DNA of 64,000 nt from Verrucomicrobiota bacterium (GTDB lineage: Bacteria > Verrucomicrobiota > Verrucomicrobiia > Limisphaerales > JANNEF01), in NCBI GenBank assembly GCA_031378375.1, contig JANNEF010000105.1:693-64692 (forward strand). The letters are read 5' to 3'. Of the stretch, positions 1,540-28,685 are shown piece by piece (the stretch's first letter is position 1; each line of letters opens with the position of its first letter). A program made the translations under genes and the position numbers. A model generated the notes under the pieces. That model was not told where the DNA came from. It searched no databases and saw nothing but the letters and a program-made list of their open reading frames with translations.

Positions 1540-1578
1540 GTTTTCGACGGGGTGTTCGCTGCGCTTATTCAGCCGAAC

Positions 1579-3612: not shown

Positions 3613-3757
3613 AATTCGCAAAAAGTTGCGCGGACAATAATCGGGAATTGAGTGCGGGTGGAAAGAAGATTCTACCGCGCTGGCAAGCGGAGGGACACGC
3701 TGCCGCCAGGGAAAGGGACGGGAAACCGGGCGGATCAGGATCCGGATACCGCCCGGC

Positions 3758-6496: not shown

Positions 6497-6948
6497 TATT
6501 TCTTGACGGGTAGTTCGACGGTTTCCAACCAGTACTGGCTGACGATGCGCATGACGTTCACGAGTTCGTCGAAACTGGTCGGTTTGGCGATGAACGAGTT
6601 GGCCCCGAGTTCATAGATGCGGTTGATGTCGGTGTCGGCCTTGGAAGTAGTGAGCACGACGACCGGGATGCGCCTCAACTCAGGATCGTTCTTGATCTCG
6701 CGCAGCGCCTCCCGTCCGTCTTTGCGCGGCATGTTCAAGTCCAGGAGAATCAGGCCGGGACGCGGAGCGGTGGTCGGCGCGTTGAATTTCCCCTGTCGGT
6801 GGAGGAAATCGAGCAACTCCTCGCCGTTCTCGACGAAGTGCAGATCACTGTCGATTTTGCACTCAGCCAGAGCGTCCTTGGCCAGCAGTCGATCATCAGC
6901 GTCGTCGTCGGCCATGAGGATGACCAGGTTTTTGGGAGGAGTACTCAA
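6496..6948 (-). CDS. Stand-alone response-regulator receiver protein (CheY-like)
   Basis: Receiver fold: LVILMADDDADD, LILLDLNMPRKDG, VVVLTTS, ANSFIAKP. The start is uncertain. A TTG at 6948 overlaps the upstream HK stop (TTGA) and keeps the first beta-strand; the first ATG (6915) would cut it; the track start (7065) adds an Arg-rich extension inside the HK gene. Confidence 0.8.
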   Translation of the reverse strand: MSTPPKNLVILMADDDADDRLLAKDALAECKIDSDLHFVENGEELLDFLHRQGKFNAPTTAPRPGLILLDLNMPRKDGREALREIKNDPELRRIPVVVLTTSKADTDINRIYELGANSFIAKPTSFDELVNVMRIVSQYWLETVELPVKK

Positions 6949-8795
6949 ACGGGTTTCTCTCCTTTGGGTTGGCGGGCGGGCAGGCTGACGGTGAACGTTG
7001 CGCCTTCGCCCAGTTTGCTCGCCGCGGTGATGGTGCCACCGTGGCGATCGGTAATACGCCGGCAAACCGCCAGCCCGACGCCCGTGCCTTCGAATTCGGT
7101 GCGCCCGTGCAGCCGTTGGAACATGGTGAAAATTTTATCGAGATATTTTTCCTCAAAACCGATGCCGTTGTCCCGGATCGTCAGTTCGCAGATCTCATCG
7201 TCAGGCGAAGGATTGACCTTGGCGGCGAATGGACGCTTGACGATCTCCGCGCTGATGGTGACCAGCGGCTGCGCGCCCGGCGCTTGGAACTTCAGCGCGT
7301 TGCCGATCAAATTTTGCAGCAGTTGGCGCATTTGGAGCGGGTCCGCGTCAATGGTGGGCAAGGCACCGACCTCGACTTTCGCCTTCGTGCGTTCAATGCG
7401 CACTTCCAGATCAGTCAGCACTTCCTGCGTGACCGCAGCGAGATCCACCGGCGCGAACGGCTCGGAGGTGCTGATGACACGCGAGAAGGTGAGCAGATCG
7501 TTGATGAGGGTCTGCATTCGCGCGGCGGCGCTCTGCATGCGCTCCAGATAATCGCGCCCTTCGTCCAGCTTTACCGCGTCGCACTTGGTTTTGAGGCGGT
7601 CGCCGAAGGCCTGGATTTTGCGAAGCGGCTCCTGCAAATCATGAGACGCCACGTAGGCAAACTGCTCCAACTCGGCGTTGGACCGTGCCAGCTCGGCGGC
7701 CTTGCGACCCAAAGCTTCCTCGGTGCGTTTGCGTTCGGTGATGTCCTTGAAAATAACCACGGCACCGACCATCCGCTCTTTTTCCATGATCGGCGTGCGG
7801 ACGTACTCGACGGGGAAACTGGCGCCGTCCTTGCGGTGGAAGATGACATCCGGCTGAGCTGCGTCGTCGCGCATCCGAAACTGCGTTTCCCCGTTTTGCA
7901 CCGGCGCGGAATGCGAGCGGTGGAACACCTCGATCTCCGGCTTGCCAATGAGCTCTTCGACGGACCAGCCGGTCAGTTTCGCGGCGGCAGGGTTGACGAA
8001 CGTGGTCTTGCCCTGGAGGTCCAGGCCGTAGATGCCCTCACCGGCGGAACTGAGGATGTTTTCGTAGCGGCGCTGGAGTTTCTGCAATTCCTGGGTGCGC
8101 ACCTGCACGGCCATCTCGAGCACATCTTTCGAACGCTCCAGTTCCTGGCGCTGGTGGGCGAGGGTTTTTCCCACTTGGGTGCGCTCGCTGAGTTCCTTCT
8201 CCAGCGCGGCGAGGGACTTGGTCAGCGAGCCGGTGCGTTCCTCAATGCGCTTGTCAAAGTCCTGTTGCAGCGTGCGCAACTGTCCTTCCACCTGCGCGCG
8301 CAAGGCGGTCTGGTGCCGTGCTTCGATTTGGGCCTCGTCCAGTTCGGACTGCGCGACCTGCAATTGCCGGGCATATTGCTGCGACTCCTGCTCCAACGTC
8401 GCACCGCGCATGGCGATGCGGCTGACCCATGCCTGCCGCCACAGCGCCATGCCCAGACTCATCACCAACATCAAACCCGCGCCACCCGCCGCCGTCGCCA
8501 CGGTGACCTTCAAAGTCCAGTCGTCCACCTGTTTGAGGAGACGCGGGATCGCTTGTTCCGCCTGTGACTTGATCTGAAGGGGTGGGGGATTTGTGGAAGC
8601 GCCGGTGGTCGAGCGTGCCGACTGGGCACCTTCGGCATAGAGGGCAATCCCTTGTTCCTTGGCCTGCGCCCGCAACGATTTGGTACCGGCCACATAAACC
8701 CAAATGCTGGCACCGATGGCCAGACTCAGCACAAGCGCCGAGGCGACCACGAACGGTTTGGGCATCGGTGATTTCGTTTCAGTTTGGCTGCTCAT
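6945..8795 (-). CDS. Membrane sensor histidine kinase (TM - coiled coil - PAS - HisKA - HATPase)
   Basis: 616 aa. It has N-terminal TM segments, a long coiled-coil region, a PAS domain (GEGIYGLDLQGKTTFVNPAAAKLTGW), an H-box (ASHDLQEPLRKI) and ATPase boxes (IGNALKF, DNGIGF, GTGVGLAVC). Confidence 0.9.
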   Translation of the reverse strand: MSSQTETKSPMPKPFVVASALVLSLAIGASIWVYVAGTKSLRAQAKEQGIALYAEGAQSARSTTGASTNPPPLQIKSQAEQAIPRLLKQVDDWTLKVTVATAAGGAGLMLVMSLGMALWRQAWVSRIAMRGATLEQESQQYARQLQVAQSELDEAQIEARHQTALRAQVEGQLRTLQQDFDKRIEERTGSLTKSLAALEKELSERTQVGKTLAHQRQELERSKDVLEMAVQVRTQELQKLQRRYENILSSAGEGIYGLDLQGKTTFVNPAAAKLTGWSVEELIGKPEIEVFHRSHSAPVQNGETQFRMRDDAAQPDVIFHRKDGASFPVEYVRTPIMEKERMVGAVVIFKDITERKRTEEALGRKAAELARSNAELEQFAYVASHDLQEPLRKIQAFGDRLKTKCDAVKLDEGRDYLERMQSAAARMQTLINDLLTFSRVISTSEPFAPVDLAAVTQEVLTDLEVRIERTKAKVEVGALPTIDADPLQMRQLLQNLIGNALKFQAPGAQPLVTISAEIVKRPFAAKVNPSPDDEICELTIRDNGIGFEEKYLDKIFTMFQRLHGRTEFEGTGVGLAVCRRITDRHGGTITAASKLGEGATFTVSLPARQPKGEKPV

Positions 8796-9142
8796 GATCT
8801 ATCGGGACCCATATTCCACGCTTTGTTTCGTACCGATGATTTACGGTCCACGTCTAAGGTATCGGCTGCTTTCACCGGATGTTTAATTTTTCCTGCGCGA
8901 AACTCACGGCGTGACCCGTTACCAATTCATCAACCGGTTTGCCCTTCTCAGCACAAGACATGCCCTCACCCGCGTAACATCAAAAAACCTTTTTCGCTTT
9001 CGTTCCATCTCCATCGGTCGGTTCCAATCCCGTTTACAAATGAACCGGTTTGGCCTTCAATCGCGCCATGTTCGCCGGAACCAACGTTTCCCTCACCGCG
9101 ACCGCCGGAACGTCGCACGTGACTTTTGACTAGCGGTGGCGC

Positions 9143-11862: not shown

Positions 11863-11966
11863 GATTAATCAGTGAGTCAGTAATCAGTAAACCAGTGGTG
11901 TGGCAGCCCGGGGCAGTTACTCCGTCCGCCGGATACTGACTCACCGATTACTGGATACTGGTTCAC
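11863..11966. repeat. CAGT-word palindromic element (copy in the opp operon)
   Basis: The left arm is GATTAATCAGTGAGTCAGTAATCAGTAAACCAGTGGTG. The right arm is GGATACTGACTCACCGATTACTGGATACTGGTTCAC, built of reverse-complement words. A ~30-nt spacer separates them. Confidence 0.8.
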
Positions 11967-16214: not shown

Positions 16215-17039
16215 TCAGTAGCGCGGCGCTTCCCACGCGAGGATGGCGCGTTTGCGCGCCGTGCCCCAGCGGTAGCCACGCACCAGGCCCGTCTCGCGAA
16301 TCACCCGGTGGCAGGGGATGAGGAACGCGACCGGATTGCGACCACAGGCGGTGCCCACGGCCCGGATGGCGCGTGGCTCGCCGATCGTCCGGGCAATCTG
16401 GCCGTAGCTCGCCACGCAGCCGGAGGGGATGCGGAGCAAAGCCCGCCAGACCTTGACCTGAAACGGCGTGCCGTGAACGAAGGCGCTCAGTGGCGCGCTT
16501 GCTCCGGGATGCCGGTTGAAGATCACCTTGATCTGACAGCGCGCGTTTCGGTCGTCGCGAATGCGCGCCGCCGCCGCCCAGCCTTCCGCCAGTTCAAGCG
16601 GCTCACCGTCATCCGTCGCCGGGTCGGGGAATCCCAGATGGCAAATCCCGCGCGCGTTCCAGCCAATCGAGCAACGGCCGAACGGACTCTCGGCGAAGCC
16701 CCAGCGTAACTGCGTGCCCGCGCCACGGTTTTTCCATTCTCCCGGCGACGCCGCCTCCAGCGTGACCAGCAGGTCGTGCAGGCGGCCGGGACCGGACAGG
16801 CCGGCGTCCAGCGCGGCCTCGATGACACTCGTCGATTCACGCAGCCGCCGCTTGGCGAACTCGGCCGTGAGGCATTGCAGGAAATCCTTCGGCGTCACTC
16901 CCGCCCAATGGCGAAACAGGCGATGGAAATGCGACTGGCTGAGTCCGGCGACCGCCGCCAGTTCTGCGAGCGAAGGCTGCGCGTCGGGTTGCTCATCGAG
17001 CAGGCGGATGACGCGCGCAATCCGTTCGTAATCGTTCAT
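16215..17039 (-). CDS. Ada-like fusion: AraC-type HTH + O6-alkylguanine-DNA alkyltransferase
   Basis: 274 aa. The N-terminus is an AraC HTH (LAELAAVAGLSQSHFHRLFRHWAGVTPKDF). The C-terminus is an MGMT domain with the active site IPCHRV and TPFQVKVWRALLRIPSG. Confidence 0.88.
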   Translation of the reverse strand: MNDYERIARVIRLLDEQPDAQPSLAELAAVAGLSQSHFHRLFRHWAGVTPKDFLQCLTAEFAKRRLRESTSVIEAALDAGLSGPGRLHDLLVTLEAASPGEWKNRGAGTQLRWGFAESPFGRCSIGWNARGICHLGFPDPATDDGEPLELAEGWAAAARIRDDRNARCQIKVIFNRHPGASAPLSAFVHGTPFQVKVWRALLRIPSGCVASYGQIARTIGEPRAIRAVGTACGRNPVAFLIPCHRVIRETGLVRGYRWGTARKRAILAWEAPRY

Positions 17040-17160: not shown

Positions 17161-19797
17161 TCACGCGCCTGGTGGCGCGCCTGGTGGCGCGCCCGCTGGC
17201 GTTTCTGTCGCAGGTCTTGGCAGGAGCAACAGTCCCAACAACAAAATGCCGACGGCGATGGCAGCGAGCGTGACGTAGAGACTCTTCACCGGCGGCTTGA
17301 ACCGGAACTCCACCGTGTGCTCGCCCGCCGGCAACGCGACGCCGCGCATCAGATAATTGCACCGGAGCAAGCGCGCAGGCTGGCCATCCACCGTGACGTG
17401 CCAGTTCGGGTCGTGTTTGTCGTTCAGCAATAGCACGGACGGCGCGGCGGCGTTCGCCCGGAGCACGAGATGTTTCGGCGCGTAGCTGGTGATGACCACG
17501 GTGCCGGGGCTTTGGTTGGTCGCGGATGCCGGGTTGGGCGGCGCGATGTCCTCCGCGACCAGCACGGTTTGCCACAAGTCGAAGGCCGGCTCGGCCAGTT
17601 TTTGCAGCGTGGCGGAGTCGTTGGTGCTTGTCTGCCAACTGGCAAAGAGCTTCGCGCGCGGCAGGGCGCCACCGTACTCGATGAGCGCGAACGGCCCGGT
17701 GGCGTTGGTGCGCGCGACGACGGTTTCGCCGGTGGGGCCGCGTTCCAGCGAGAAGGCCAACCGCTGCTGGAAGCGCCGCTGCGCGGGGTCGAGTTGCTGG
17801 TTGAGCGCGTTGGCGAATTCGCCCGCCAGACCGAACACGTAGCGCGTGTTGGTCAGTTGCCAGAGCCGCACGAGGTTGGTTGACAGCACCTGGCGATACG
17901 CCGCGTTGTCCGCCGCCACGCGCGACTCCTGCACCACGTCCACCGACTGGATGTTGTAAAACTGGAAGAGATGTTGCATCCACTCGACATGGTAAAGCTG
18001 CTGGAAAAACTGGAATTGCTGCCCCAGCGAAAATCGCGGCGTGACCACGCGATGCTCGAACGGCTGCTCGCGCAGAAAATCCACCACGGGATTGGAGGCG
18101 TATTTCTCCCGGTAATTCAGGTGAAGGATCCACGGCGTGTTGGCCCGTGCCAGGTCCACCACCAGCACCAGGCCCAGGAGGATCGCCGCCCACCTGGCGC
18201 GGGTGCCGGTGAAGCAACCCTTCACGATGAAGGCCAGCACCGTCACCGTCACGGCCAGGAAGACGAAGAACAGCCCGACTTCACCCAGACTGTGCCCGGC
18301 CATCGCGCGGGCGCCGCTCGCGTCGAAACCGTTCTCCATCATGTAAGCTTCCACGGCGTTGCGCGACGAGGCATAGATCAACCAGCCGAGCAGGCAGGCC
18401 GCGACCGCCGCGTACGAGCCGATGATCCATTTCTTGTCGAAGCCCGACGGCGCGGGTGGTGGCGCGGACGGGGCACCATTCTTTTTCCCCGTCAGCAGGC
18501 CCGGTGCTTTCGCGGTGGCTCGTTCCACGTAACTTTGCCACAGGCCATGCACGCCGTAGGCGAAGACGACGACCAGCGCCCAGTTGAAGACGTGCATGAA
18601 CTTGGCCGGATTGCGGATGGTGGAGAAATACGGCAGCTTGTAGAGCAATCCGTAAAACGGCGCGTGCCGCCCGAACGCCAGCAACAGCGCCGCCACCAAC
18701 ACCGCCGCCCAGAACCAAAGCAACCTCCGTTGCGCCGGGGTGAACGCGGAATCCTTGCGCCGAAACGCCTGCAACAACGCCCAAAACGCCACGACCGCCA
18801 CGGCCACACCCGCGTACACGCCGCCGCCCGAATAACGCGCGAAGCCCTGATGATGGGTCTCCCAGCCCGGCTGCCGTCCGATGGTGCCCCAGTAATTGCC
18901 GCCGTCCGGCGTGTCCATGCGATAGCCGAACAGCCCGGGGATAATCACCGAGAGCATCTCCTTCTTGGGCAGGCTCCATTGCGTGGCCCAATCCCAGCGC
19001 TCCTCGGTGCGCTGGTCTTCCTGCGCGCCGGCGACGCCTTTGATCTGCGTGCCGATGAGAGTGGTGAGCATTTGCGCGGCGAAGAACACGGCGAAGACCG
19101 CCACCAACCCCAGCCGGATCGCGCCGCGCGACAGTTGCTTCATCAACGGCCCTTCCCGCGTGAACGCCTGGTAAATCACAAACGCCGCGACCTGAAGACT
19201 GAAGATCGCGCCGATGTCCGCGCCTTCCGTGACACCAAGGCCGACGGCCAGCCCGGCAAGCGCCACCTTCACCCACGCCCGCCAGCCTGTGCCATTGGCC
19301 AGCGCCGCCAGCGCGAGATAATTCACCCCGATGGTGATCGGGTGCGTCACCACGCCCCAGCACGCGGCGGAGAAAAAGGTCGAGTTCAACGCCGCCGCCA
19401 GGCCGCCCAGCGCGCAGGCGGCGGGCGTCAACTTCAGGGAGCGGAACAACAACCACGCACTGAATCCCAGGAAGATGACGCTGAACGGCGCGTAGAACTT
19501 GGCGAAATACAGCGGCCCCAGCAGCCAGAACAACAGCCCGGTGATGCCCGTGGGGTAGGTGCCGCCATTGGCGCCGACCCAGTTCAAGTCCATCCACATG
19601 CTTTGGAACGACGCCGGCGGTGCAATTGATCGAGTGCTGATGGCGCCCAGCGGGCCGTCGTTGGAAAAGACGACCTTGTCCGGATGCAGACTGTTGTGAA
19701 AGAGCGCCAGCACGACGACCAGCAGGCAGCCGAGGACAAGCAGCGCGTTTCGCGATGAGAAATCCGTGGACGGTTTGGACGATGGGTTCAGCGCCAT
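17161..19797 (-). CDS. Large polytopic membrane protein (YfhO / GT-C-like, function unknown)
   Basis: 878 aa, with more than 12 hydrophobic segments in the first ~560 aa and then a soluble C-terminal domain. The resemblance to the YfhO family is by architecture only. The C-terminus ends in a 12-nt x3 tandem repeat (PAGAPPGAPPGA). Confidence 0.6.
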   Translation of the reverse strand: MALNPSSKPSTDFSSRNALLVLGCLLVVVLALFHNSLHPDKVVFSNDGPLGAISTRSIAPPASFQSMWMDLNWVGANGGTYPTGITGLLFWLLGPLYFAKFYAPFSVIFLGFSAWLLFRSLKLTPAACALGGLAAALNSTFFSAACWGVVTHPITIGVNYLALAALANGTGWRAWVKVALAGLAVGLGVTEGADIGAIFSLQVAAFVIYQAFTREGPLMKQLSRGAIRLGLVAVFAVFFAAQMLTTLIGTQIKGVAGAQEDQRTEERWDWATQWSLPKKEMLSVIIPGLFGYRMDTPDGGNYWGTIGRQPGWETHHQGFARYSGGGVYAGVAVAVVAFWALLQAFRRKDSAFTPAQRRLLWFWAAVLVAALLLAFGRHAPFYGLLYKLPYFSTIRNPAKFMHVFNWALVVVFAYGVHGLWQSYVERATAKAPGLLTGKKNGAPSAPPPAPSGFDKKWIIGSYAAVAACLLGWLIYASSRNAVEAYMMENGFDASGARAMAGHSLGEVGLFFVFLAVTVTVLAFIVKGCFTGTRARWAAILLGLVLVVDLARANTPWILHLNYREKYASNPVVDFLREQPFEHRVVTPRFSLGQQFQFFQQLYHVEWMQHLFQFYNIQSVDVVQESRVAADNAAYRQVLSTNLVRLWQLTNTRYVFGLAGEFANALNQQLDPAQRRFQQRLAFSLERGPTGETVVARTNATGPFALIEYGGALPRAKLFASWQTSTNDSATLQKLAEPAFDLWQTVLVAEDIAPPNPASATNQSPGTVVITSYAPKHLVLRANAAAPSVLLLNDKHDPNWHVTVDGQPARLLRCNYLMRGVALPAGEHTVEFRFKPPVKSLYVTLAAIAVGILLLGLLLLPRPATETPAGAPPGAPPGA

Positions 19798-19848: not shown

Positions 19849-20646
19849 ATGCGCGGCGAACTCTGGCGGAAAACCCGGGGCGTGCCAATGGCCAACTTGC
19901 GCCTGCATTCCAGGCCGCGACCAAACAATCTTATTTCTCGCCGCGCGGCGGGGATGTGCGACGTTGGGCGTGTTCCCGTGAGCCACCGCCGCAACATCGC
20001 GCTATTCCTATTGCCAGCCATGATCCTGGCCGCTTTCGCCTGCTGTCTGCTCGCACCGCTGGAGCCGGTTCATCAGGGCCGCCGGCTCGCCGCCTGGTTG
20101 CAGGATTTCGACAGCGCCTCGCCGCAACGACGCGACCGCGCGGCGGAGGCCGTTCGGCAAATGGGCGCGGCCGTCGTGCCGTCACTGGTCGAAATCCTCC
20201 GCCAACGCGACTCCGGCTTCAAAGTCGCACTTGGCAAATGGATGAACGCGGTCGTCCCGGTCCAACTCTATTTCAGGCCGGCGGGGGAACGGCACCGGCA
20301 GGCGATCCAGGCGTGCCGGGCGCTGGGCCCGGCGGGGCGTCCGGCCATCCCGGAGTTGATCGCGCTGCTCAACGATGCCGAATCTTCCAGCGCAGCCGCG
20401 CACGCGCTGGCGGTGATTGATCTGCGCATCTTCCCGCTGTCCCGCGCGCTGACCGACGGGAACTACGCGGCCCCGGTGCGGCGGAGCATCGCGCTGCGGC
20501 TGGCCTGCGGCTGGTATAACCCGCAGCAGGTGGTGCCCGCGCTGGTGCAAGGGCTTCAGGACGCCGACAGCGGCGTCAGCGTGGCCGCCGCAGAATCGTT
20601 GAAGCGGATCGATCCGGCGGCGGCGGCCCGGTTGGGGCTGAAGTAA
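19849..20646 (+). CDS. HEAT-repeat protein with N-terminal membrane anchor or signal
   Basis: 265 aa. It carries repeated HEAT/PBS-lyase-type helices (AVVPSLVEILRQRD, AIPELIALLNDAES, VVPALVQGLQDADSGVSVAAAESL). The start codon is uncertain. Confidence 0.65.
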   Translation: MRGELWRKTRGVPMANLRLHSRPRPNNLISRRAAGMCDVGRVPVSHRRNIALFLLPAMILAAFACCLLAPLEPVHQGRRLAAWLQDFDSASPQRRDRAAEAVRQMGAAVVPSLVEILRQRDSGFKVALGKWMNAVVPVQLYFRPAGERHRQAIQACRALGPAGRPAIPELIALLNDAESSSAAAHALAVIDLRIFPLSRALTDGNYAAPVRRSIALRLACGWYNPQQVVPALVQGLQDADSGVSVAAAESLKRIDPAAAARLGLK

Positions 20647-20738
20647 GGCGCGACCATTTCATGCGGTCGCCGGTTGACGGAGAAACCGAACGCATTTTCT
20701 GGTTTTTAAGGTGGGAACCGTTACTATTCGCGCGACAA

Positions 20739-21728
20739 ATGAATACTGGAATCACTGCCATCAACGACGAAGTCCAAAAGGCCAGCGCCTTCGTGCGCCC
20801 GCTGTTTGCCGAGATCGGCAAGGTCGTCATCGGCCAGAGCTATCTGGTCGAACGCCTCGCCATCGGCCTGCTCGCCGGCGGGCATGTGCTGCTCGAAGGT
20901 GTGCCCGGTCTGGCGAAAACGCTCTCGGTGAAAACGCTCGCCGCGTGCCTCAACGTAAAGTTTTCCCGCCTGCAATTCACGCCCGACATGCTGCCCGCCG
21001 ATGTCATCGGCACGCAGATTTACAACCCGCAGAGCGGCGGCTTCACCACGCGCAAAGGCCCGATCTTCGCCAACCTCGTCCTCGCCGACGAAATCAACCG
21101 CGCGCCCGCCAAGGTGCAAAGCGCGTTGCTCGAAGCGATGCAGGAGAAACAGGTGACCATCGGCGACCAGACCTACAAGCTGGAGGAACCGTTCCTCGTG
21201 CTCGCCACGCAAAACCCCATCGAGCAGGAAGGCACCTACCCGCTGCCCGAAGCGCAGGTTGACCGCTTCATGCTCAAGTTGAAGATCGGCTATCCCAGCC
21301 GCGACGAGGAGCGGCAAATCCTCGACCTGATGGCGCGCACCAGCAACCTGCCCACCGCCAGTTCGGTGGTGGAACCGAAACAGATTTTGAAGGCGCGCCA
21401 GGTCATCAACGACATCTACGTGGACGACAAGGTGAAGGATTACATCGTGGACCTCGTCTGCGCCACGCGCGACCCGGCGCAATACAAAATCCAGCTCCAG
21501 GGTCTCATCCAGCTCGGCGCGTCACCGCGCGCGACCATCAACCTCACGCTGGCGGCCAAGGCGTATGCCTTCCTCAAGGGCCGCGGCTACGTCACGCCGC
21601 AGGACGTGAAGAGCATCGGCATGGATGTGCTGCGCCACCGCGTCGCCATCACCTACGAAGCCGAGGCGGAAGACAAGACGAGCGAGACGATTGTGCAGAA
21701 GATTTTTGATGAGTTGCCGGTGCCGTGA
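20739..21728 (+). CDS. moxR: MoxR-family AAA+ ATPase
   Basis: Track ORF trimmed to the ATG at 20739 (MNTGITAINDEV). Has Walker A LLEGVPGLAKT, Walker B VLADEINRA and LATQNPIEQEGTYPLPEAQVDRF. Confidence 0.93.
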   Translation: MNTGITAINDEVQKASAFVRPLFAEIGKVVIGQSYLVERLAIGLLAGGHVLLEGVPGLAKTLSVKTLAACLNVKFSRLQFTPDMLPADVIGTQIYNPQSGGFTTRKGPIFANLVLADEINRAPAKVQSALLEAMQEKQVTIGDQTYKLEEPFLVLATQNPIEQEGTYPLPEAQVDRFMLKLKIGYPSRDEERQILDLMARTSNLPTASSVVEPKQILKARQVINDIYVDDKVKDYIVDLVCATRDPAQYKIQLQGLIQLGASPRATINLTLAAKAYAFLKGRGYVTPQDVKSIGMDVLRHRVAITYEAEAEDKTSETIVQKIFDELPVP

Positions 21729-21867
21729 TTAACGCTCTCCGATGGCAACTCTCACCAATTTCAGCATCCATGACGAACCGAGTTCCGGCCAGAGGATCTG
21801 CGCATGCACTCTCGAACGTCCTCGAGGCACCCTCGACACCGAGCGACACACGAGGTAAAACCAGTCC

Positions 21868-22143
21868 ATGAGCAAGACACTCACTTTGCAGTATCCAGAC
21901 AACCTGCCCGCCACGCTGCACATGACCGCTCCGGAATTCGAGCGCGAAGCCAAACTGTCCATGGCAGTGAAACTTTACGAAACCGGCAAACTCTCCTCCA
22001 GCCAGGCGGCCGCGCTGGTGAGCCTGCCGCGCGTTCACTTCCTCTACGAACTGGCCCGGTTTGGCGTCTCGCCACAGCAGTTGGACGCCGGAGAACTTGC
22101 GACCGACCTCGCCCATGCCGAACAAGCCCTCGCTGGTCATTAA
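21868..22143 (+). CDS. UPF0175-family antitoxin
   Basis: 91 aa. The pattern L.YPD.LP..L.M...EF.REAK...AVKLYE.GKLS..QAA.L matches UPF0175. It overlaps the downstream PIN-like gene. Confidence 0.75.
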   Translation: MSKTLTLQYPDNLPATLHMTAPEFEREAKLSMAVKLYETGKLSSSQAAALVSLPRVHFLYELARFGVSPQQLDAGELATDLAHAEQALAGH

Positions 22144-22612
22144 CACCAGCCCGCTCGTCGCACTGATGACTGGCTTGGATGATTTCCATGTCCTCGGCGA
22201 AGTGGCGACACTGGTGGTGCCGGGAGAAGTCATGGCCGAGCTTCAGGCCGGAAAGGCGCGCGATGATGTTGCCAAGAGAATCGCGTCCACCCCCAGCTGT
22301 GCGATTCGTGCGAACCTTCCGTCCCTGCCGCTGTCCCTCCAGAGCGCGCTGGGCGCGGGCGAGGCCGCGGTCATTCATACGGCCCTGACGGAATCCATTT
22401 CCACAGTCGTCATTGATGAACGCAATGGGCGCCGCACGGCTGCGCTCCCCGGTCTACGTGTAACTGGCTCGCTCGGCCTGCTGCTCGCGTTGCAAAGGCG
22501 CGGCTTGGTGACGTCAATCCGGCCGGCGATCGCGCGGATGAAAGCGAAGGGCATTCATCTCAGCGACGACTTGGTGAACGAGGCGCTACAATTGGAAGGA
22601 GGCAAGCGATGA
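22115..22612 (+). CDS. DUF3368-family PIN-like toxin
   Basis: Track ORF trimmed to the ATG at 22115 (MPNKPSLVINTSPLVALMTGL). The NTSPL..L, VPGEVMAEL and GEAAVI segments fit DUF3368/PIN-like proteins, which are normally paired with UPF0175. Confidence 0.75.
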   Translation: MPNKPSLVINTSPLVALMTGLDDFHVLGEVATLVVPGEVMAELQAGKARDDVAKRIASTPSCAIRANLPSLPLSLQSALGAGEAAVIHTALTESISTVVIDERNGRRTAALPGLRVTGSLGLLLALQRRGLVTSIRPAIARMKAKGIHLSDDLVNEALQLEGGKR

Positions 22613-22636
22613 ACAGAAACCCATCACGCTTCACCT

Positions 22637-22722
22637 GCCGCGGCGGCATCACCTGCGCGGCGGAGGACAAGACGAGCGAGACCATCGTGCGGAAGATTCT
22701 TGATGGGTTGCCGGTGCCGTGA
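22637..22722 (+). pseudogene. Duplicated 3' end of moxR (remnant)
   Basis: 22659-22722 aligns with moxR 21665-21728 at 58/64 identical nt (hand count), including the stop. It translates as ...ITCAAEDKTSETIVRKILDGLPVP*, versus moxR ...ITYEAEAEDKTSETIVQKIFDELPVP*. Confidence 0.85.
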
Positions 22723-23435
22723 TCAGAGTCGCCACATCCACCGTGAGAATCGCCCTGGTAGGAGACCACAGTCCCGATGTGAAGGCCCACGCGGCCATTC
22801 CCAAAGCTTTGACCCTGGCTGCCGGAACTGTTGGCACGGAGGTTTCAGTCGAATGGCTCCCAACGCAGGCGCTGCTTGGCAATGACCTCAAAAGACTGGG
22901 CGGTTTCCAAGGTATCTGGTGCGTGCCCGGCAGCCCATACGTGAGCATGGAGGGAGCGCTCCGGGCGGTTCGATTCGCCCGCGAGCGCATGGTTCCATTC
23001 CTCGGCACTTGTGGTGGGTTCCAGCACACACTAATCGAGTATGGCCGGAGCGTGCTCGCTTTGACCGAGGCCGACCATGCCGAGTCCAACCCTTCCGCAA
23101 GTTTCGCCCTGATCGCTCCCCTGTCCTGCCCTCTCAGAGAAACCGTCGCGCGCATCCATCTCCGTCCAGGCTCACGCGCAGAAGTCATTTATGGTCAGCC
23201 AGAGACAATCGAGACGTTCAACTGCGGCTACGGGCTTAACCCGGAGCACCAAACGCTCTTCTCAAATGGCGCCTTGCGCATCAGCGGCGTGGCGGACGAC
23301 GGATCGGTACGCATTGTGGAGTTGCAGGATCATGCTTTCTTCCTGGCTGCTTTGTTCCAACCCGAACGATCGGCAGAGCGCAACCATTCACATCCGCCGA
23401 TCGTGGCATTTGCTCGCGCCGCACTCGCCGCATGA
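22719..23435 (+). CDS. Class I glutamine amidotransferase-like protein (CTP synthase C-terminal-domain homolog)
   Basis: 238 aa. VRIALVGD, FLGTCGGFQ (nucleophile elbow) and HAFFLAALFQPERSAERNHSHPPIVAFARAA align with the CTP synthase GATase domain (E. coli ...[31 protein letters not shown]). The GTG start overlaps the remnant moxR stop (GTGA), and the stop overlaps the remnant DUF58 start (ATGA). Confidence 0.75.
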   Translation: MIRVATSTVRIALVGDHSPDVKAHAAIPKALTLAAGTVGTEVSVEWLPTQALLGNDLKRLGGFQGIWCVPGSPYVSMEGALRAVRFARERMVPFLGTCGGFQHTLIEYGRSVLALTEADHAESNPSASFALIAPLSCPLRETVARIHLRPGSRAEVIYGQPETIETFNCGYGLNPEHQTLFSNGALRISGVADDGSVRIVELQDHAFFLAALFQPERSAERNHSHPPIVAFARAALAA

Positions 23436-23490
23436 TCCTCCGCGAAATTCTCAAAAAACTCCGGCAGATCGAGATTTGCTCGAACCGTGT
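23432..23490 (+). pseudogene. Duplicated 5' end of the DUF58 gene (remnant)
   Basis: 23432-23487 aligns with the true DUF58 start 24076-24131 at 51/56 identical nt (hand count): MILREILKKLRQIEICSNR versus MIPREILKKIRQIEIRTNR. Similarity ends after ~19 codons. Confidence 0.85.
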
Positions 23491-23506
23491 TCTGCCGGTG
23501 TTCCGT

Positions 23507-23806
23507 TCAATTCAACCGTCGCCGCAACTCGGCGGGATTCCGTGCACCGTGAAAAAACGCGACCACATGGACCGCATTCAACTCAATCGAGTAATAAATG
23601 CTGTAGGGAAATCGTTTGAGAATGGCTTTATGCGTGGCAGGCGCGGCGAGACGAAACCTTTCGGGAACCGTAATAATCTGCTGAAGCATTTCCTGCACTT
23701 CGAGGGTGAATTCATCGCTCAATCCCGGGCGCTGGTTTTCATACCACGCCGCAGCGTCCTCAAACTCCAGCCGGGCGAGCGGCGCGAAAATGATTTCGCG
23801 CCTCAT
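23507..23806 (-). CDS. RelE/ParE-family type II toxin
   Basis: 99 aa. FAPLARLEFEDAAAWYENQRPGL, FPYSIYYSIE and VHVVAFFHGARNP are typical of ParE/RelE plasmid-stabilisation toxins. The start overlaps the antitoxin stop (ATGA). Confidence 0.8.
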   Translation of the reverse strand: MRREIIFAPLARLEFEDAAAWYENQRPGLSDEFTLEVQEMLQQIITVPERFRLAAPATHKAILKRFPYSIYYSIELNAVHVVAFFHGARNPAELRRRLN

Positions 23807-24036
23807 GCCTTGCGGCTTTTCAAACGTTCAGCGAGTTCGGCTTGCACGGTTTCCCAAGGAATGCCGCGTTCAGGATGCTGCCGCAATTCTTCCGCGCGAC
23901 GTTCAAGTTCGGTGATCTGTTCCAGCGTGAGTTCGTCATCGAAATCGCCGAACTCTTCGCGGACTTTTTCGGCGACTTCTTGTTGTTCCCCGGGCGGCAA
24001 CCGGCGGATTTGTTCCAGAATTTCTGTCGCGCTCAT
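23803..24036 (-). CDS. Addiction-module antitoxin (TIGR02574-like component)
   Basis: This is the last 77 codons of the spurious 610-aa track ORF 23803..25635: MSATEILEQIRRLPPGEQQEVAEKV...GIPWETVQAELAERL. The pattern fits the small 'addiction module component' antitoxins found upstream of ParE/RelE genes. Confidence 0.7.
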   Translation of the reverse strand: MSATEILEQIRRLPPGEQQEVAEKVREEFGDFDDELTLEQITELERRAEELRQHPERGIPWETVQAELAERLKSRKA

Positions 24037-24075
24037 GGAACCAAATTTAGCGGTCACGATACATTTTGCAAGCGC

Positions 24076-25026
24076 ATGATCCCCCGCGAAATCCTCAAAA
24101 AAATCCGGCAGATCGAGATTCGCACGAACCGGCTCGTGAGCGAGACGCTTGCGGGCCAGTACCACAGCGTCTTCAAAGGCCAGGGCATGAACTTCGAGGA
24201 AGTGCGCGAATACCAGCCGGGCGACGAGGTGCGCGCCATTGATTGGAACGTCACCGCGCGCATGAACCATCCGTTCGTGAAAAAGTTCGTCGAAGAGCGC
24301 GAGCTGACGCTCATGCTGCTCGTGGACCTGAGCGGCTCCGGCCTGTTCGGCTCTGGCGAGCAGAGCAAGCGCGAACTGGCGGCGGAAATCGCGTCGGTGC
24401 TCGCCTTCTCCGCCATCCGCAACAATGACAAGGTGGGCTTGATTCTGTTCACCGATGAGGTGGAGAAGTTCATGCCGCCGCGCAAGGGCAAGAAACACGT
24501 CTTGCGGGTCATCCGGGAAATTCTTTTCTCCGAGCCGAAGCGGCGCGGCACGGACTTGAACTGCGCGCTGGAATTCCTGGTGCGCGTCACGCCCCATCGC
24601 GCCATCGCGGTGATTCTGTCGGATTTTCTGGAGCCGGGCACCGCCAGTCCGATCTCCCGCCTTCGTCCCGGCGCGACGGGTGAGACGAAGAACCTCGCCC
24701 AGGCCTCCTACACCGCACTGCGCCAGGCCAATCGCCGGCACGATGTCGTCGCGGTGCAAATCGCCGACCGCTTCGAGCAGGAACTGCCCGCGCTGGGCCG
24801 CCTCGTGCTCAAGGACGCGGAAACGGGCGAAGTGGTGGAAGTGAACTCCAGCGACACGCGCAAGCGCGACGCCTTCGCGCGGCAGCAGGCGGTGGCGCAG
24901 GAGGAGTTGATGCGCCTGTTCCGCTCCGCGCGCATTGACGCAATCCAGTTGCGCACCGACCAGCCGTACGGCTCGGAGCTGGGGCGGTTCTTCGAGACAC
25001 GGGAGAAACGGCGGATGCGTGGTTAA
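24076..25026 (+). CDS. DUF58 domain protein (Bat operon member)
   Basis: Track ORF trimmed to the ATG at 24076 (MIPREILKKIRQIEIRTNRLV). GQYHSVFKGQGMNFEEVREYQPGDEVRAIDWNVTAR and LLVDLSGS are DUF58 hallmarks. Confidence 0.9.
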   Translation: MIPREILKKIRQIEIRTNRLVSETLAGQYHSVFKGQGMNFEEVREYQPGDEVRAIDWNVTARMNHPFVKKFVEERELTLMLLVDLSGSGLFGSGEQSKRELAAEIASVLAFSAIRNNDKVGLILFTDEVEKFMPPRKGKKHVLRVIREILFSEPKRRGTDLNCALEFLVRVTPHRAIAVILSDFLEPGTASPISRLRPGATGETKNLAQASYTALRQANRRHDVVAVQIADRFEQELPALGRLVLKDAETGEVVEVNSSDTRKRDAFARQQAVAQEELMRLFRSARIDAIQLRTDQPYGSELGRFFETREKRRMRG

Positions 25027-25038
25027 ATGAGTTGCTGA

Positions 25039-25659
25039 ATGGCCGCCACCAACCACGCTCTCATCGTCCCGCCGCCGTCGCCCGCCGCCGTCGCGGCGAC
25101 GAACAACATTCGCGCCATCAAACCGCCGGTGGAGATTCCCAACGACTGGGCGTGGCTGTGGTGGACGCTTGCGGCCGTCGCACTCATCGCGGCGGGGGTA
25201 TGGCTGTGGATTTGGTGGAAGCGAAAACATGCCCGCCCCGTCGCGGTCGTGGTTGTGCCGCCGCACATGCGCGCGAAGCAAAAACTGGCGGAGGCGCTGG
25301 CGCTCATTCACGATCCCCGCCTGTTCTGCATCGCGGTGTCGGACGCGCTGCGCTGGTATCTGGAGGAACGGTTCCGGCTCCACGCGCCGGAGCGGACAAC
25401 TGACGAGTTCCTCGTGGAGTTGCAATCCTCCAACGCGCTGCTGGCTGGTCAAAAGAGTGGACTGGGTGAATTCCTCCAAAACTGCGACCTGGTGAAGTTC
25501 GCCCGCTTTGAGCCGACGGAAGCCGCGCTGCGCGAGTTGCACGAGGCCGCGCTGCGACTGGTGGACGAAACGCAATACGAGCCTCCCGCTCCCGCGTCCG
25601 TCGGCAACGTGCCGCCACCCGATGCTGTCACGCACGACGCACCCCGCGCCACCCCCTGA
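25039..25659 (+). CDS. DUF4381 domain membrane protein
   Basis: 206 aa. It has IRAIKPPVEIP, a single TM segment (WLWWTLAAVALIAAGVWLWIWW) and CDLVKFARFEP. It occupies the usual position between DUF58 and BatA. Confidence 0.8.
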   Translation: MAATNHALIVPPPSPAAVAATNNIRAIKPPVEIPNDWAWLWWTLAAVALIAAGVWLWIWWKRKHARPVAVVVVPPHMRAKQKLAEALALIHDPRLFCIAVSDALRWYLEERFRLHAPERTTDEFLVELQSSNALLAGQKSGLGEFLQNCDLVKFARFEPTEAALRELHEAALRLVDETQYEPPAPASVGNVPPPDAVTHDAPRATP

Positions 25660-25660
25660 G

Positions 25661-26656
25661 ATGACCTTCGCGCATCCCTATTTTTTGTTGCTGTTGTTGC
25701 TGCTTCCGGTGATCGCGTGGCTGCGGGGCAAGCACGGCCCGCGGGCGGCGTTTCTTTATTCATCCGTGCAGTTGGTGCAGGATGTCTCCCACGTCAGCCG
25801 TTCGAGCGCGGGCCGGGTTTTGACGGCCCTGCGCTGGCTGACGCTGGCGTTGTTCATCGTGGGGCTGGCGCGGCCGCAACTGGTCGAGAGCGAGACCACC
25901 GTCAACGCCAGCGGCATTGACATCGTGCTGGCGGTTGATCTTTCCGGCAGCATGGAATCGGAAGACTTCACGCTCAAAAACCAACGCGTGAACCGCCTCG
26001 TGATCGCCAAGGATGTGTTGAAGAAATTCATCGAACGCCGCCCGGGCGATCGCATCGGGCTGGTGGCATTTGCCGGCAAGGCGTACATCGCCGCCCCGAT
26101 GACGCTCGACCACGGCTTCCTGCAACAAAACCTGGAGCGCCTCGCCCTGCACTCCATTGAGGACGGCACCGCCATTGGTTCCGGCCTGTCGGCTTCAATC
26201 AACCGGCTGCGCGATCTGAAATCCAAGAGCAAGATCGTCATCCTGATGACCGACGGACAGAACAACGCGGGCAAAGTCCCGCCGCTCACCGCCGCCGAGG
26301 CTGCGCAGACTCTGGGCGTGAAGGCTTACACCATCGGCGTCGGCACGCGCGGCACCGCGCCCATGCCGCGCATGAATGTCTTCGGCCAGAAAGTCTATGT
26401 GCAGGTGCCGGTGGACATTGACGAGGAGACGCTCCAGGCCATCGCGAAAAAAACCGGCGGCAAGTATTATCGCGCCGACAGCACGGACACCTTGCGCAAG
26501 ATTTACGACGAGATCGATCAACTGGAAAAGACCGAGGTCGAAGTGAAGAAGTATGTGCGCATCGAAGAACTGTTTTTCTGGGCGGTGGCGCCGGGGCTGG
26601 GGCTGCTGCTGCTGGAGATTTTGTTGAACAACACAATTTGGCGGAGGCTGCCGTGA
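25661..26656 (+). CDS. batA: VWA-domain membrane protein BatA
   Basis: Track ORF trimmed to the ATG at 25661 (MTFAHPYFLLLLLLLPVIAW). It has a VWA MIDAS motif (DIVLAVDLSGSM, ILMTDGQNN) and a C-terminal TM segment. Confidence 0.88.
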   Translation: MTFAHPYFLLLLLLLPVIAWLRGKHGPRAAFLYSSVQLVQDVSHVSRSSAGRVLTALRWLTLALFIVGLARPQLVESETTVNASGIDIVLAVDLSGSMESEDFTLKNQRVNRLVIAKDVLKKFIERRPGDRIGLVAFAGKAYIAAPMTLDHGFLQQNLERLALHSIEDGTAIGSGLSASINRLRDLKSKSKIVILMTDGQNNAGKVPPLTAAEAAQTLGVKAYTIGVGTRGTAPMPRMNVFGQKVYVQVPVDIDEETLQAIAKKTGGKYYRADSTDTLRKIYDEIDQLEKTEVEVKKYVRIEELFFWAVAPGLGLLLLEILLNNTIWRRLP

Positions 26657-26660
26657 GGGG

Positions 26661-26786
26661 AATAGTAATCAGTGGGTCAATAATCAGTGAATCAGTCACT
26701 GAGAAGCGAGGTTCACCGTCCCGCATAGCTGCGATCGCCATTGATCACTGGTTCACTGATTACTGACCTACTGACCCACTGACAAC
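26661..26786. repeat. CAGT-word palindromic element (batA-batB intergenic copy)
   Basis: The left arm is AGTAATCAGTGGGTCAATAATCAGTGAATCAGTCACTGAG. The right arm is TTGATCACTGGTTCACTGATTACTGACCTACTGACCCACTGAC, e.g. TCAGTGGGTCA pairs with TGACCCACTGA. The spacer is ~37 nt. Confidence 0.85.
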
Positions 26787-26789
26787 GCC

Positions 26790-28685
26790 ATGCGCTTTGA
26801 ACATCCCGAACTGCTGTGGTTCCTCCTGCTCGCCGTGCCGGCGCTGACCGCCTTTCTCTGGTGGGCCTGGCGGCGGAAGCGGGCGCTTATCGCGCAGTTC
26901 GTCCGGTCGCGGTTGCTGGCGAACCTCACAGTGGGCGTTTCGACCACGCGGCAAAAAGCGCGGCTGGCTTTGCTCGTCGCCAGCGTCGCGCTGCTCATCG
27001 TGGCGCTGGCGCGGCCCCAGTGGGGTTTCGACTGGGAGGAGGCGCGGCAGCGCGGGCTGGACATCATCGTGGCGATTGACACCTCGCGCAGCATGCTGGC
27101 CGAGGACGTCGCGCCCAACCGCCTGGAGCGCGCCAAACTCGCCGCGATGGATTTGAAAAAACTCGCGCGCATGGACCGGCTGGGCCTGGTCGCCTTCGCC
27201 GGCAGCGCCTTCCTGCAATGCCCGCTCTCCACCGACGACGAGGCGTTCCGCCAAAGCGTGAACGCGCTCGATGTGAACATCATTCCCCAGGGCGGCACGG
27301 CGCTGGCGGAGGCAATCCAGTCGGCCTTGAGCGCCTTCAAGGAAAAGAGCGACAACCACAAGGTGCTCGTGCTGTTCACCGACGGCGAGGATCACGACGG
27401 CAGCGCCCTGGCCGCCGCCAAACAGGCGGCGAAGGACGGGCTGCGCATCTTCACCGTCGGCGTGGGCACGCCGAACGGCGAGTTGCTGCGCCTCCCCGGC
27501 TCGAAGGGGCGGAGCGAGTTCATCAAGGATACGTCGGGCAACGTGGTGAAGTCGCGGCTGGATGAGCAGTTGCTCCGGCAGATGGCGCAGTCGGCGGAAG
27601 GATTTTACCTGCTCCTGAGCGGAGCCAACACGATGGATGTGCTCTACGAGCGCGGCCTGGCGCCGCTGCCGAAGGCGGAGTTCTCGGCCAAGCGGGTGAA
27701 GCGCCCCCACGAGCGTTACCAATGGCTGCTGGGATTGACGATGGTGCTATTGTTGGTCGAGATGTTTTTGCCGGAACGAAAGATCGCACGAGACGCCGGG
27801 GTGATGACCGAAGGCGGCGTCAGCGCCGGACTGCCGAAGGCGGTCGCGCTGTTGCTGCTGCTCGCGTGGCCGGGATTCGCCACCGCCTCGCCTGCCGGCG
27901 CGTTGAAAAAGTACGAGAACGGGAAATACGAGTCGGCGCTGCTGGAATATCAGCGGCTGATCAAGAAGAAGCCCGGCGATCCGCGGCTGGAATTCAATGC
28001 GGGCGCGGCGGCGTATCAGGCGCAGGATTTCCAGGAAGCGTTGAAGCACCTGAATTCCTCGCTCCTCACTCCCGATGTGCCGCTACAGCAGCGCGCCTAT
28101 TACAATCTCGGCAACACGCAGTATCGGGTGGGTGAGGACGCGGCCGAACCACAGAAAAAGCAGGAAGTGTGGGAACAGGCGGTGACGAGCTACGAGAGCG
28201 CGCTCAAACTGAACCCGGCGGACGAAGACGCGAAGTTCAACCTCGACCTGGTGAAGACGAGGCTGGAGGAACTCAAGAAGCAGCAGCAACAGCAGCAGTC
28301 CAAGGATGGCAAGGACGACAAGGACAAAAAGGGCGATCAGAAGAAGGACGAGCAATCCAAGAACGACCAGAAGCAGGACGGAAAGAAGTCCGACGAGCAG
28401 AAACAGCAGGAGCAGCAAAAACAGGAACAGCAGAAGCAGCAGGAGAATCAGGAGGCGAAGAAAGACGGGCAGAAGCAGGACGAACAAAAACAGGCGCAAC
28501 AGAACCAACCCGACGACAAATCAGACAAACCGGAAGACGCCCAGGCTGGCCACACGATGATGGTGCGGATGACCCCGAAGGAAGCGCAACAGTTGCTCGA
28601 CGCGCAGAAGGGCGAGGAGAAGGCTATGATTTTTCAGCCACAGTTGAAGACCAACCGGAACGAGCGCGTGTTCAAGGACTGGTGA
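26790..28685 (+). CDS. batB: VWA + TPR membrane protein (BatB/BatC-type fusion) with Lys/Gln/Glu-rich tail
   Basis: 631 aa. Starts MRFEHPELLWFLLLAVPAL and has a VWA MIDAS motif (DIIVAIDTSRSM, LFTDGEDHDG). It also has a TM segment, TPR repeats (YENGKYESALLEYQRLIKKKP, AYYNLGNTQY) and a ~90-aa K/Q/D/E low-complexity region. Confidence 0.88.
   Translation: MRFEHPELLWFLLLAVPALTAFLWWAWRRKRALIAQFVRSRLLANLTVGVSTTRQKARLALLVASVALLIVALARPQWGFDWEEARQRGLDIIVAIDTSRSMLAEDVAPNRLERAKLAAMDLKKLARMDRLGLVAFAGSAFLQCPLSTDDEAFRQSVNALDVNIIPQGGTALAEAIQSALSAFKEKSDNHKVLVLFTDGEDHDGSALAAAKQAAKDGLRIFTVGVGTPNGELLRLPGSKGRSEFIKDTSGNVVKSRLDEQLLRQMAQSAEGFYLLLSGANTMDVLYERGLAPLPKAEFSAKRVKRPHERYQWLLGLTMVLLLVEMFLPERKIARDAGVMTEGGVSAGLPKAVALLLLLAWPGFATASPAGALKKYENGKYESALLEYQRLIKKKPGDPRLEFNAGAAAYQAQDFQEALKHLNSSLLTPDVPLQQRAYYNLGNTQYRVGEDAAEPQKKQEVWEQAVTSYESALKLNPADEDAKFNLDLVKTRLEELKKQQQQQQSKDGKDDKDKKGDQKKDEQSKNDQKQDGKKSDEQKQQEQQKQEQQKQQENQEAKKDGQKQDEQKQAQQNQPDDKSDKPEDAQAGHTMMVRMTPKEAQQLLDAQKGEEKAMIFQPQLKTNRNERVFKDW

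Follow-up and report, generated by a model that had tools for sequence, protein, structure and literature searches.

The junction between the moxR and DUF58 genes of a Bat-type operon is, with a probability of roughly 0.6, a recombination-driven hotspot for gene cassettes, in which copies of the gene ends act as translational adaptors. The case examined here lies in a 64,000-nucleotide (nt) stretch of contig JANNEF010000105.1 from a Verrucomicrobiota bacterium (Limisphaerales), termed the window; coordinates are window positions unless another locus is named. An inverted ParE-type toxin-antitoxin (TA) gene pair is situated between two copies of the start of DUF58, and the upstream copy opens a 215-codon open reading frame (ORF) that crosses both TA genes in antisense and ends at the DUF58 start codon. 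We refer to the moxR 3′ end as A and its extra copy as A′, and to the DUF58 5′ end as B and its extra copy as B′. On sequence comparison, the best reading is that the window holds one instance of a hypervariable cassette site that is lineage-wide in Pedosphaera/Limisphaerales-like Verrucomicrobiota.

Relatives were collected by a DUF58-based scan with one genome per species, which yielded 80 loci (designated by L numbers), all in Verrucomicrobiota metagenome-assembled genomes (MAGs; Pedosphaera, Limisphaerales). Gene-end remnants in these loci were located with two 120-nt profiles, one for the moxR 3′ terminus (A) and one for the beginning of DUF58 (B). The carriers are soil and freshwater Verrucomicrobia, and dozens of relatives share the same junction design. 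The arrangement in the window is not peculiar to one assembly, because an independent Logan contig (L161, SRR20217213_325901) is 100% identical to positions 21696-24105.

The start of the DUF58 gene is duplicated

The features on the DUF58 side of the insert are as follows.

23429..23487, plus strand: B′, duplicate of the DUF58 5′ end, identified by repeat search, profile and alignments; its ATG at 23432 overlaps the amidotransferase stop codon
23432..24079, plus strand: bridge ORF of 215 codons, from the B′ ATG to a TGA overlapping the DUF58 ATG; antisense to and codon-aligned with ParE
23507..23806, minus strand: ParE/RelE-superfamily toxin (Pfam ParE_toxin PF05016, E 2.5e-6, 28.4 bits, cut-off 23)
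23803..24036, minus strand: antitoxin, Unstab_antitox/TIGR02574-like (PF09720, E 3e-8, 34 bits, cut-off 23.3)
24037..24075, minus strand: promoter-like spacer of 39 nt, with TTGCAA (24071-24066), 16 nt, TAAATT (24049-24044), 7 nt and the antitoxin ATG
24076..25026, plus strand: DUF58 (vWA-like) gene, intact (Pfam DUF58, 4.6e-80), whose first 56 nt are copy B

A repeat search aligns 23429-23487 with 24073-24131 over 59 nt at 92% identity (54/59). This agrees with a sequence-only reading of the region, in which 51 of 56 nt counted from the ATG were identical and both moxR and DUF58 were described as intact. In pairwise alignment, the match opens 3 nt 5′ of the ATG (CGCATGATCC) and closes after AACCG. 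We estimate from a binomial model that chance alone would produce a 54/59 match within 64 kb about 1e-15 times. The window contains 14 families of direct repeats of at least 35 nt, and the top two are B′/B and a pair formed by the moxR 3′ end (21662-21729 and 22656-22723; 68 nt, 90%). Moreover, a profile of the DUF58 5′ end (first 120 nt, 60-odd related species) matches 23432-23491 with an E value of 7e-13. The 56 nt reported earlier as the length of the duplicate correspond to its clear match only; alignment with homologous cassettes reveals decayed homology that runs on to ∼23503, almost to the ParE stop codon, with a 9-nt in-frame deletion, such that the remnant comprises ∼79-80 nt of DUF58.

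Between B′ and its own B, nonsynonymous and synonymous codon changes stand in a ratio of 0.94, compared to 0.20 for intact copies between species. The ∼9% divergence of both repeat pairs thus probably reflects relaxed constraint. Their equal divergence had been taken as a sign of a single event or of equal age, but the resemblance is within sampling noise for two segments of 60-70 nt. None of the DUF58 copies from 84 other species is a better match to the window B′ than the window's own DUF58; in several other loci, by contrast, the remnant is closer to foreign copies.

A bridge ORF extends through the cassette

The upstream copy had been regarded as a mere remnant. It instead starts the 215-codon ORF ending on the DUF58 ATGA, and both the openness and the phase of this ORF are conserved across species. 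That the copy is in frame with, and part of, a longer conserved gene had been named earlier as a finding that would refute the remnant reading. In a technical sense this is so: B′ is in frame with the 215-codon ORF, but this ORF is not a conserved protein.

Conservation was evaluated in a discovery set of 32 intervals, each spanning from a B′ ATG to the next DUF58-type ATG, and in a validation set of seven intervals from loci reached independently via ParE homologues. In the discovery set, 27 of the 32 spacings equal 2 mod 3, and 22 intervals lack stops in the B′ frame and terminate on ATGA, with 2-17 stops in the other two frames; L031 is an additional case if a shifted ATG is used. All seven validation intervals, among them those of a four-cassette array, are stop-free and six have spacings of 2 mod 3. 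The L167 interval, for example, runs for 1280 nt without stops in the B′ frame, compared to 13-14 stops in the other frames. Over both sets, 29 of 39 intervals are stop-free in the B′ frame, ending on ATGA or continuing in frame, and the B′ ATG is kept in nearly all copies. Stop codons are rarer than codon usage predicts (combined ∼1e-9 by synonymous resampling).

The spacer between the antitoxin ATG and the next DUF58-type ATG has a length divisible by 3 in 28 of 29 cases. These 28 in-phase spacers come in 13 distinct lengths, from 39 to 177 nt, and often include 7-nt tandem repeats. Because the spacer is promoter DNA and non-coding for the cassette, its phase conservation cannot stem from coding on the minus strand. 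The longest bridge ORFs in relatives reach ∼470 codons (range 200-470), and no bridge ORF has a Pfam match. A permissive search for ORF chains from moxR to DUF58 succeeded for 22 of 29 loci, but was judged non-discriminating without a null and is not relied on.

The 7-nt tandem repeats also occur elsewhere. In the window they occupy intergenic spacers at 11863-11897, 26663-26773, 51779-51866 and 54804-54894, some as inverted pairs, and in L048, L044, L029, L073, L050, L059 and L046 they lie just upstream of DUF58. The repeat unit is approximately AATCAGT in the window and CATCACG, CACTCCG, CATTCGT or CAATCGG in relatives. Where such repeats fall within a bridge ORF, the total spacer length is nonetheless a multiple of 3.

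The ParE toxin-antitoxin cassette

The presence of a ParE-type TA pair between the two copies, reported previously, is borne out by the Pfam matches listed above; against TIGR02574 the antitoxin scores 31.6 bits, just under the 31.9 cut-off. The antitoxin gene comes first and overlaps the toxin gene by 4 nt (ATGA, 23803-23806), and the products are ∼77 and 99 residues long, respectively. The two genes occur together in relatives. Searches recovered 87 homologues of the window ParE, many of which are labeled ParE by their sources, and similarity to solved ParE structures, such as ParE2 structure 8c26, is weak (E 0.2-0.35). For the predicted toxin, ParE-like and RelE-like activities would not be separable by sequence. 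Differences between the window ParE and its homologues number 20, 13 and 47 at minus-strand codon positions 1, 2 and 3. This concentration at third positions indicates that the TA genes are the selected reading frame, and both the toxin and the antitoxin genes are under purifying selection. By itself, the TA pair is ordinary.

The arrangement TTGCAA-16-TAAATT-7-ATG within a 39-nt spacer is common to the window, L006, L049, L058, L059 and L166. A consensus promoter scan returned nothing; since the proposed TA promoter scores 8/12, under threshold, its assignment is based on positional conservation only. The cassette extends from 20 nt beyond the B′ repeat to the −35 element, 4 nt from the DUF58 ATG. 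At its left side, 15 cassettes from nine species share a distance of exactly 84 nt between the B′ ATG and the toxin stop codon, although these cassettes encode toxins just 34-77% alike; the distance in the window is 75 nt because of the 9-nt in-frame deletion. This geometry (84-nt left junction, 39-nt spacer) is common to other species, and therefore the unit predates the window genome. One such relative, L166, carries the same cassette type with a toxin 73% identical. It lacks the amidotransferase and the second TA cassette (TA1) found in the window, and a separate bridge ORF of 31 codons links its moxR stop codon to B′.

Two further observations concern this cassette. Its G+C content (23488-24072) is 54%, compared to 62% for the window and 60-64% for the neighbors. 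On the minus strand, 23449-23502, just past the ParE stop codon, holds an 8-bp stem within B′ (CCGGCAGA/UCUGCCGG) followed by AGUUUUUUGAG. B′ was considered as a terminator of the TA operon and rejected, as the stem reaches significance with DNA parameters only, not as RNA, and ten related cassettes show no conservation of it.

Cassettes recur at the junction in related species

Among 80 species representatives, the gap between moxR and DUF58 ranges from −1 nt to 2644 nt. The tight overlap (−1 nt) is found at nine loci and has the sequence GTGCCATGATCC (CCATGA). Profile searches reveal extra partial copies of A or B in about 25 species. Without exception, A′ ends at the stop codon, B′ starts at the ATG and the order is A..A′..B′..B. 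Remnants occur on the moxR side alone in L022, L023, L035 and L057, and on the DUF58 side alone in L048, L049, L058, L166 and others; lengths of A′ vary from 52 to 91 nt, and B′ is present two or three times in a row at some loci.

The cassettes are mostly TA pairs, consistent with the earlier statement that the junction has acquired addiction modules. ParE/Unstab_antitox pairs, always reversed, are the most common cargo between the copies, and four ParE homologues on long contigs (68-77% identity to the window ParE) are all located at this junction. Further cargo consists of PIN toxins, DUF5615/DUF433 and DUF4160/DUF2442 genes, an IS200-like transposase and many genes without a family. Forward-oriented cargo genes are diverse and include nitrilase-like, UPF0167, SIMPL, KilA-N, DUF4288, DUF5069 and beta-propeller genes.

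In a DUF58 tree, insert-bearing loci interleave with tight-overlap loci: the nearest neighbors of the window (L004, L001 and L025) have the tight overlap, L020 (overlap) is sister to L023 (802-nt insert), and L061 (75 nt) groups with L049 and L059, which hold unrelated cassettes. Close relatives whose flanks are 89-93% identical likewise carry unrelated cassettes. Arrays have linkers (B′ plus spacer) that resemble one another more closely (65-93%) than their TA genes do (46-63%).

Several loci have additional features. L163 and L164 (JGI Ga0181533_1001205 and Ga0181530_10003947; ∼1540-5340) hold four tandem ParE/antitoxin cassettes plus a DUF4160/DUF2442 pair between moxR and DUF58, and a 2.85-kb antisense stretch in them lies under three stop-free ORFs, one of which continues in frame through two units. 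An IS200-like Y1 transposase gene lies between moxR and a moxR-3′ remnant in L064 (6243-6707) and L029 (7463-7930), and in L029 it is situated between ∼70-nt direct repeats at 7382 and 7976. Away from the junction, a two-gene cassette in L055 is preceded by a 69-nt duplicate of the start of nadA (16636-16704 and 17374-17442), and L076 has a 140-nt duplication in a J-domain gene around a ParE/antitoxin pair (525-664 and 2179-2318). That the same duplicate-plus-cassette anatomy exists at these two genes indicates that the process is general and that the moxR/DUF58 junction is a hotspot for it.

The moxR side of the insert

The 2.35-kb insert in the window also carries a second cassette and an amidotransferase gene. 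The features on this side are as follows.

20739..21728, plus strand: moxR (AAA_3 ATPase), intact (Pfam AAA_3, 2.3e-66; AAA_lid_2), whose last 68 nt are copy A
21725..21871, plus strand: bridge ORF of 48 codons; its GTG overlaps the moxR stop codon (GTGA) and its TGA overlaps the UPF0175 ATG (ATGA); no Pfam family
21868..22143, plus strand: UPF0175-family antitoxin of cassette TA1 (Pfam UPF0175, 3e-22)
22115..22612, plus strand: DUF3368 (PIN-like) toxin of cassette TA1 (Pfam DUF3368, 4.9e-13)
22609..22722, plus strand: ORF of 37 codons holding A′; its ATG overlaps the toxin stop codon (ATGA) and its TGA overlaps the amidotransferase GTG (GTGA)
22719..23435, plus strand: central forward gene, a glutamine amidotransferase related to the CTP synthase C terminus (NCBIfam PRK06186, 2.3e-90, above cut-off)

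The order in the window is therefore A, TA1, A′, amidotransferase, B′, reversed ParE/antitoxin and B, with DUF4381 and then BatA/BatB downstream of DUF58. The insert is fully tiled by plus-strand ORFs: from moxR to DUF58 there are five ATGA/GTGA stop-start overlaps and one 29-nt gene overlap (UPF0175/toxin). No convincing plus-strand terminator was found in the insert, with one weak site compared to 5.5 expected from shuffles. The moxR-3′ remnant A′ covers 22638-22722 in the moxR frame (profile E value of 1.6e-14), and the 37-codon ORF that holds it is called as a gene in the Logan contig. TA1 has no homologue among the 80 related loci. Its toxin matches the PADLOC candidate defense system PDC-S70 (1.7e-33), and its UPF0175 partner matches weakly. 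The closest amidotransferase homologues (metagenomes, 63-72%) are all directly upstream of DUF58 in relatives, and in L081 and L083 the remnant that precedes them derives from the DUF58 5′ end and not from the moxR 3′ end.

Within moxR, 20964-21263 (nt 226-525) is 93-96% identical to L043/L046 and 79-89% identical to the DUF58-tree neighbors L004 and L001, which suggests an inter-species recombination tract. Noise in a sliding-window search prevented the identification of a donor for either the DUF58 5′ end or the moxR 3′ end. One end of the Logan contig L161 lies within repeat A (21696) and the other within repeat B (24105). Such short repeats cause assemblies to break, and thus junction arrays may be under-represented in short-read MAGs. 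Exact-sequence look-ups with the window DUF58 and MoxR gave no match, and the look-up with ParE alone reached the same genome. An Rfam search of 20000-27000 detected no RNA family.

A proposed model for cassette persistence

There is no neutral space for insertion at this junction, because the ancestral moxR stop codon overlaps the DUF58 start codon (CCATGA). Cassettes that persist would be those bracketed by a copy of the gene end that is otherwise cut, either as moxR (A)-cassette-A′ or as B′-cassette-DUF58 (B); the remnants retain the native stop/start overlaps. We propose that the operon is transcribed through the cassette and that ribosomes that finish the amidotransferase reinitiate at the B′ ATG, read through the cassette in antisense, stop on ATGA and start again on DUF58. 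The bridge ORF might thereby keep ribosomes on the operon mRNA over ∼650 nt of antisense sequence and preserve termination-reinitiation at DUF58, and translation across the cassette could shield the transcript from Rho-type polarity. The cassette would retain its own near-leaderless promoter abutting the DUF58 ATG. We infer that the bridge ORF matters for being translated, and not for its peptide.

We are less confident about how the cassettes move. They may be gained, lost and swapped by homologous recombination, with the gene-end copies and the conserved flanking genes serving as arms. The first duplicate might arise from a rare illegitimate event, namely homology-facilitated illegitimate recombination, a Campbell-type crossover or template switching. 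The first of these is the closest described process; an identical scar would be expected from a Campbell-type crossover of a circle with B(1-84) or from template switching. The sequence data fit old cassette frames that would have been inherited, exchanged through flanks and gene-end copies and partly homogenized, rather than a recent block import.

A number of observations weigh against this explanation. Given its phase, the openness of the window ORF alone is unremarkable (P = 0.69 under synonymous resampling). Because openness given phase is weak evidence per locus, the case is built on phase and spacer lengths. Between five and seven loci break the chain or the phase (for example, L043, L054 and L040), and about 30 related species have untranslated moxR-DUF58 spacers of 9-160 nt. 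Tight coupling is thus not obligatory, and the constraint seemingly bites only for long inserts. The comparative cassettes have common ancestry and are not fully independent, and read-through transcription and translation of the plus strand are predicted from frame conservation only. Finally, an exact 84-nt left junction shared by cassettes with such different toxins is not obviously expected from homology-driven exchange.

Alternative explanations

The fixed left junction could reflect a positional insertion mechanism. In this alternative, a trans-acting recombinase, integron- or island-like, targets the DUF58 5′ and moxR 3′ ends, and the repeats are regenerated att-type sites. The tandem arrays of up to four cassettes would then be expected, and the linkers that are more alike than the cargo resemble those of chromosomal integrons, as does the prevalence of TA pairs with their own promoters (PMC8876359). 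However, no recombinase is present in the 0.6-2.6-kb inserts, and a single tyrosine-recombinase query, of limited sensitivity, found no integrase homologue in the window or the junction loci. Synonymous sites are no more conserved in the duplicated segments than in the rest of the genes (0.62 versus 0.67 and 0.69 versus 0.66), intact B folds no better than shuffles (z = −0.25 and 0.09), the length of A′ is variable, and similar duplicates exist at nadA and the J-domain gene, which are unrelated. On balance, we consider site-specific integration unlikely.

One locus does contain an integrase. In L079 (3080-7944), a tyrosine integrase gene (6618-7901, minus strand) is located between 46-nt direct repeats in a tRNA-type, island-like arrangement; an ADP-ribosyltransferase toxin gene (8025-8873) lies just past the right-hand repeat, and the 10 kb upstream of DUF58 contain no moxR. 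As a candidate junction recombinase this integrase was rejected, since it belongs to an unrelated tRNA-type island with its own repeats.

The duplicates could also be neutral leftovers of insertion, with a long antisense ORF that has no function and simply reflects the scarcity of stop codons opposite G+C-rich genes. In favor of this view, this genome has many long antisense ORFs, constraint on the B′ peptide is relaxed, and 69% of synonymous resamplings leave the window ORF open once its phase is given. Inert scars do not readily explain the conserved phase (27/32 and 6/7 spacings), a spacer length divisible by 3 in 28 of 29 cases despite 7-nt repeat units, the stop-free L167 interval or the retention of the B′ ATG. 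Furthermore, the L076 cassette, the only ParE cassette examined that lies outside an operon junction, has no single antisense through-ORF. We regard this alternative as improbable, slightly more so than site-specific integration.

The sequence-only reading named, as one of two histories, the import of a single block (moxR-3′, amidotransferase, DUF58-5′) from a ∼91%-identical relative, here between two pre-existing TA modules. Such an event would account for the similar identities of the two repeat pairs (90% and 92%), for the exact start/stop overlaps with which A′ and B′ flank the amidotransferase and, conceivably, for the possible recombination tract in moxR. Nonetheless, it is very unlikely: A-only and B-only remnants are common in relatives, B′ rather than A′ precedes the amidotransferase homologues in L081 and L083, the B′-ParE geometry is common to several species, B′ is closest to its own B, and an illegitimate insertion exactly between two cassettes would be needed.

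Finally, the notion that the 215-codon ORF is a genuine protein gene antisense to the TA pair is scarcely credible even though its presence, start and end are conserved across species, as substitutions peak at the ORF first codon position (the ParE third position), no family matches it, its sole recognizable part, the DUF58 N terminus, is under relaxed constraint, and its sequence changes completely wherever the cassette differs.

Implications

If our explanation is correct, selfish addiction modules can colonize the interior of a tightly coupled operon without silencing it. It would also provide a reason why some long antisense ORFs are conserved without encoding a useful protein, in that the act of translation is selected. 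The junction would be a natural landing pad for cassettes that is conserved across a poorly studied phylum, with turnover between species whose flanks are ∼90% identical. For annotation, bridge ORFs and gene-end remnants should be read as neither pseudogenes nor new proteins.

Comparison with known systems

Like the window pair, type II ParE/RelE modules comprise two genes with the antitoxin first, a 4-nt overlap and promoter-like elements. Unlike the usual module, the window pair lies antisense inside a conserved operon, without a terminator or spare flanking DNA, and its antisense strand is kept open as an ORF.

Integrative islands such as tRNA/tmRNA islands and SXT in the 5′ end of prfC regenerate the end of their target gene. 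The junction resembles them in the gene-end direct repeats that flank the insert, the intact target gene and tandem accretion. In contrast, the inserts here are 0.6-1 kb without an integrase and give no sign of a sequence-specific site.

Displacement (“orphan”) arrays of Rhs, contact-dependent inhibition (CDI) and type VI secretion system (T6SS) effector-immunity genes, for which homology-facilitated illegitimate recombination has been proposed (PMC5361080), share more with the junction. In both, a conserved gene receives incoming modules, its former end is displaced and survives as a remnant, repetition of such events builds arrays, and close relatives differ in content. The moxR/DUF58 site has the anchor gene, the displaced gene-end remnants and the intact gene restored beside the new module that characterize such arrays. 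It differs in that displacement toward the middle affects the 3′ end of moxR as well as the 5′ end of DUF58, that the cargo is a mixture of addiction modules and various other genes and not a set of alternative tips of one protein, and that the remnants keep their start/stop overlaps.

Chromosomal integron arrays, whose cargo is dominated by TA pairs with their own promoters (PMC8876359), are similar in having small promoter-bearing TA cassettes separated by repeats that are more alike than the cargo. However, no attC-like fold or conserved core site was found at the junction, nor was IntI with the single tyrosine-recombinase query of limited sensitivity; moxR and DUF58 directly flank the array, the linkers are the TA promoter spacer plus 84 nt of DUF58 coding sequence, and the repeats are copies of coding gene ends. 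A parallel for the bridge ORFs is provided by ORF-11/17/18 of integron attI1, a non-genic ORF whose translation, and not its peptide, supports the downstream gene (PMC8876359). The bridge ORFs have the sequence traits of such coupling ORFs, namely a start, an end at the downstream start codon and an unconstrained peptide, but with 200-470 codons they are much longer than the 11-18 codons of the integron ORFs, and they run antisense to the cargo.

Our literature search turned up neither this junction nor bridge ORFs that cross TA cassettes. The kinds of system involved (displacement arrays, integron-like cassette arrays and coupling ORFs) are known; a lineage-wide cassette site bracketed by gene-end copies and conserved antisense bridge ORFs appear to be undescribed in the literature searched. 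We tentatively suggest, at somewhat less than even odds, that the site is a recombinase-free analogue of an integron in a housekeeping operon, in which gene-end duplicates would act as portable homology arms and translational adaptors, and antisense bridges of up to ∼470 codons would be kept purely for ribosome traverse and escape from polarity.

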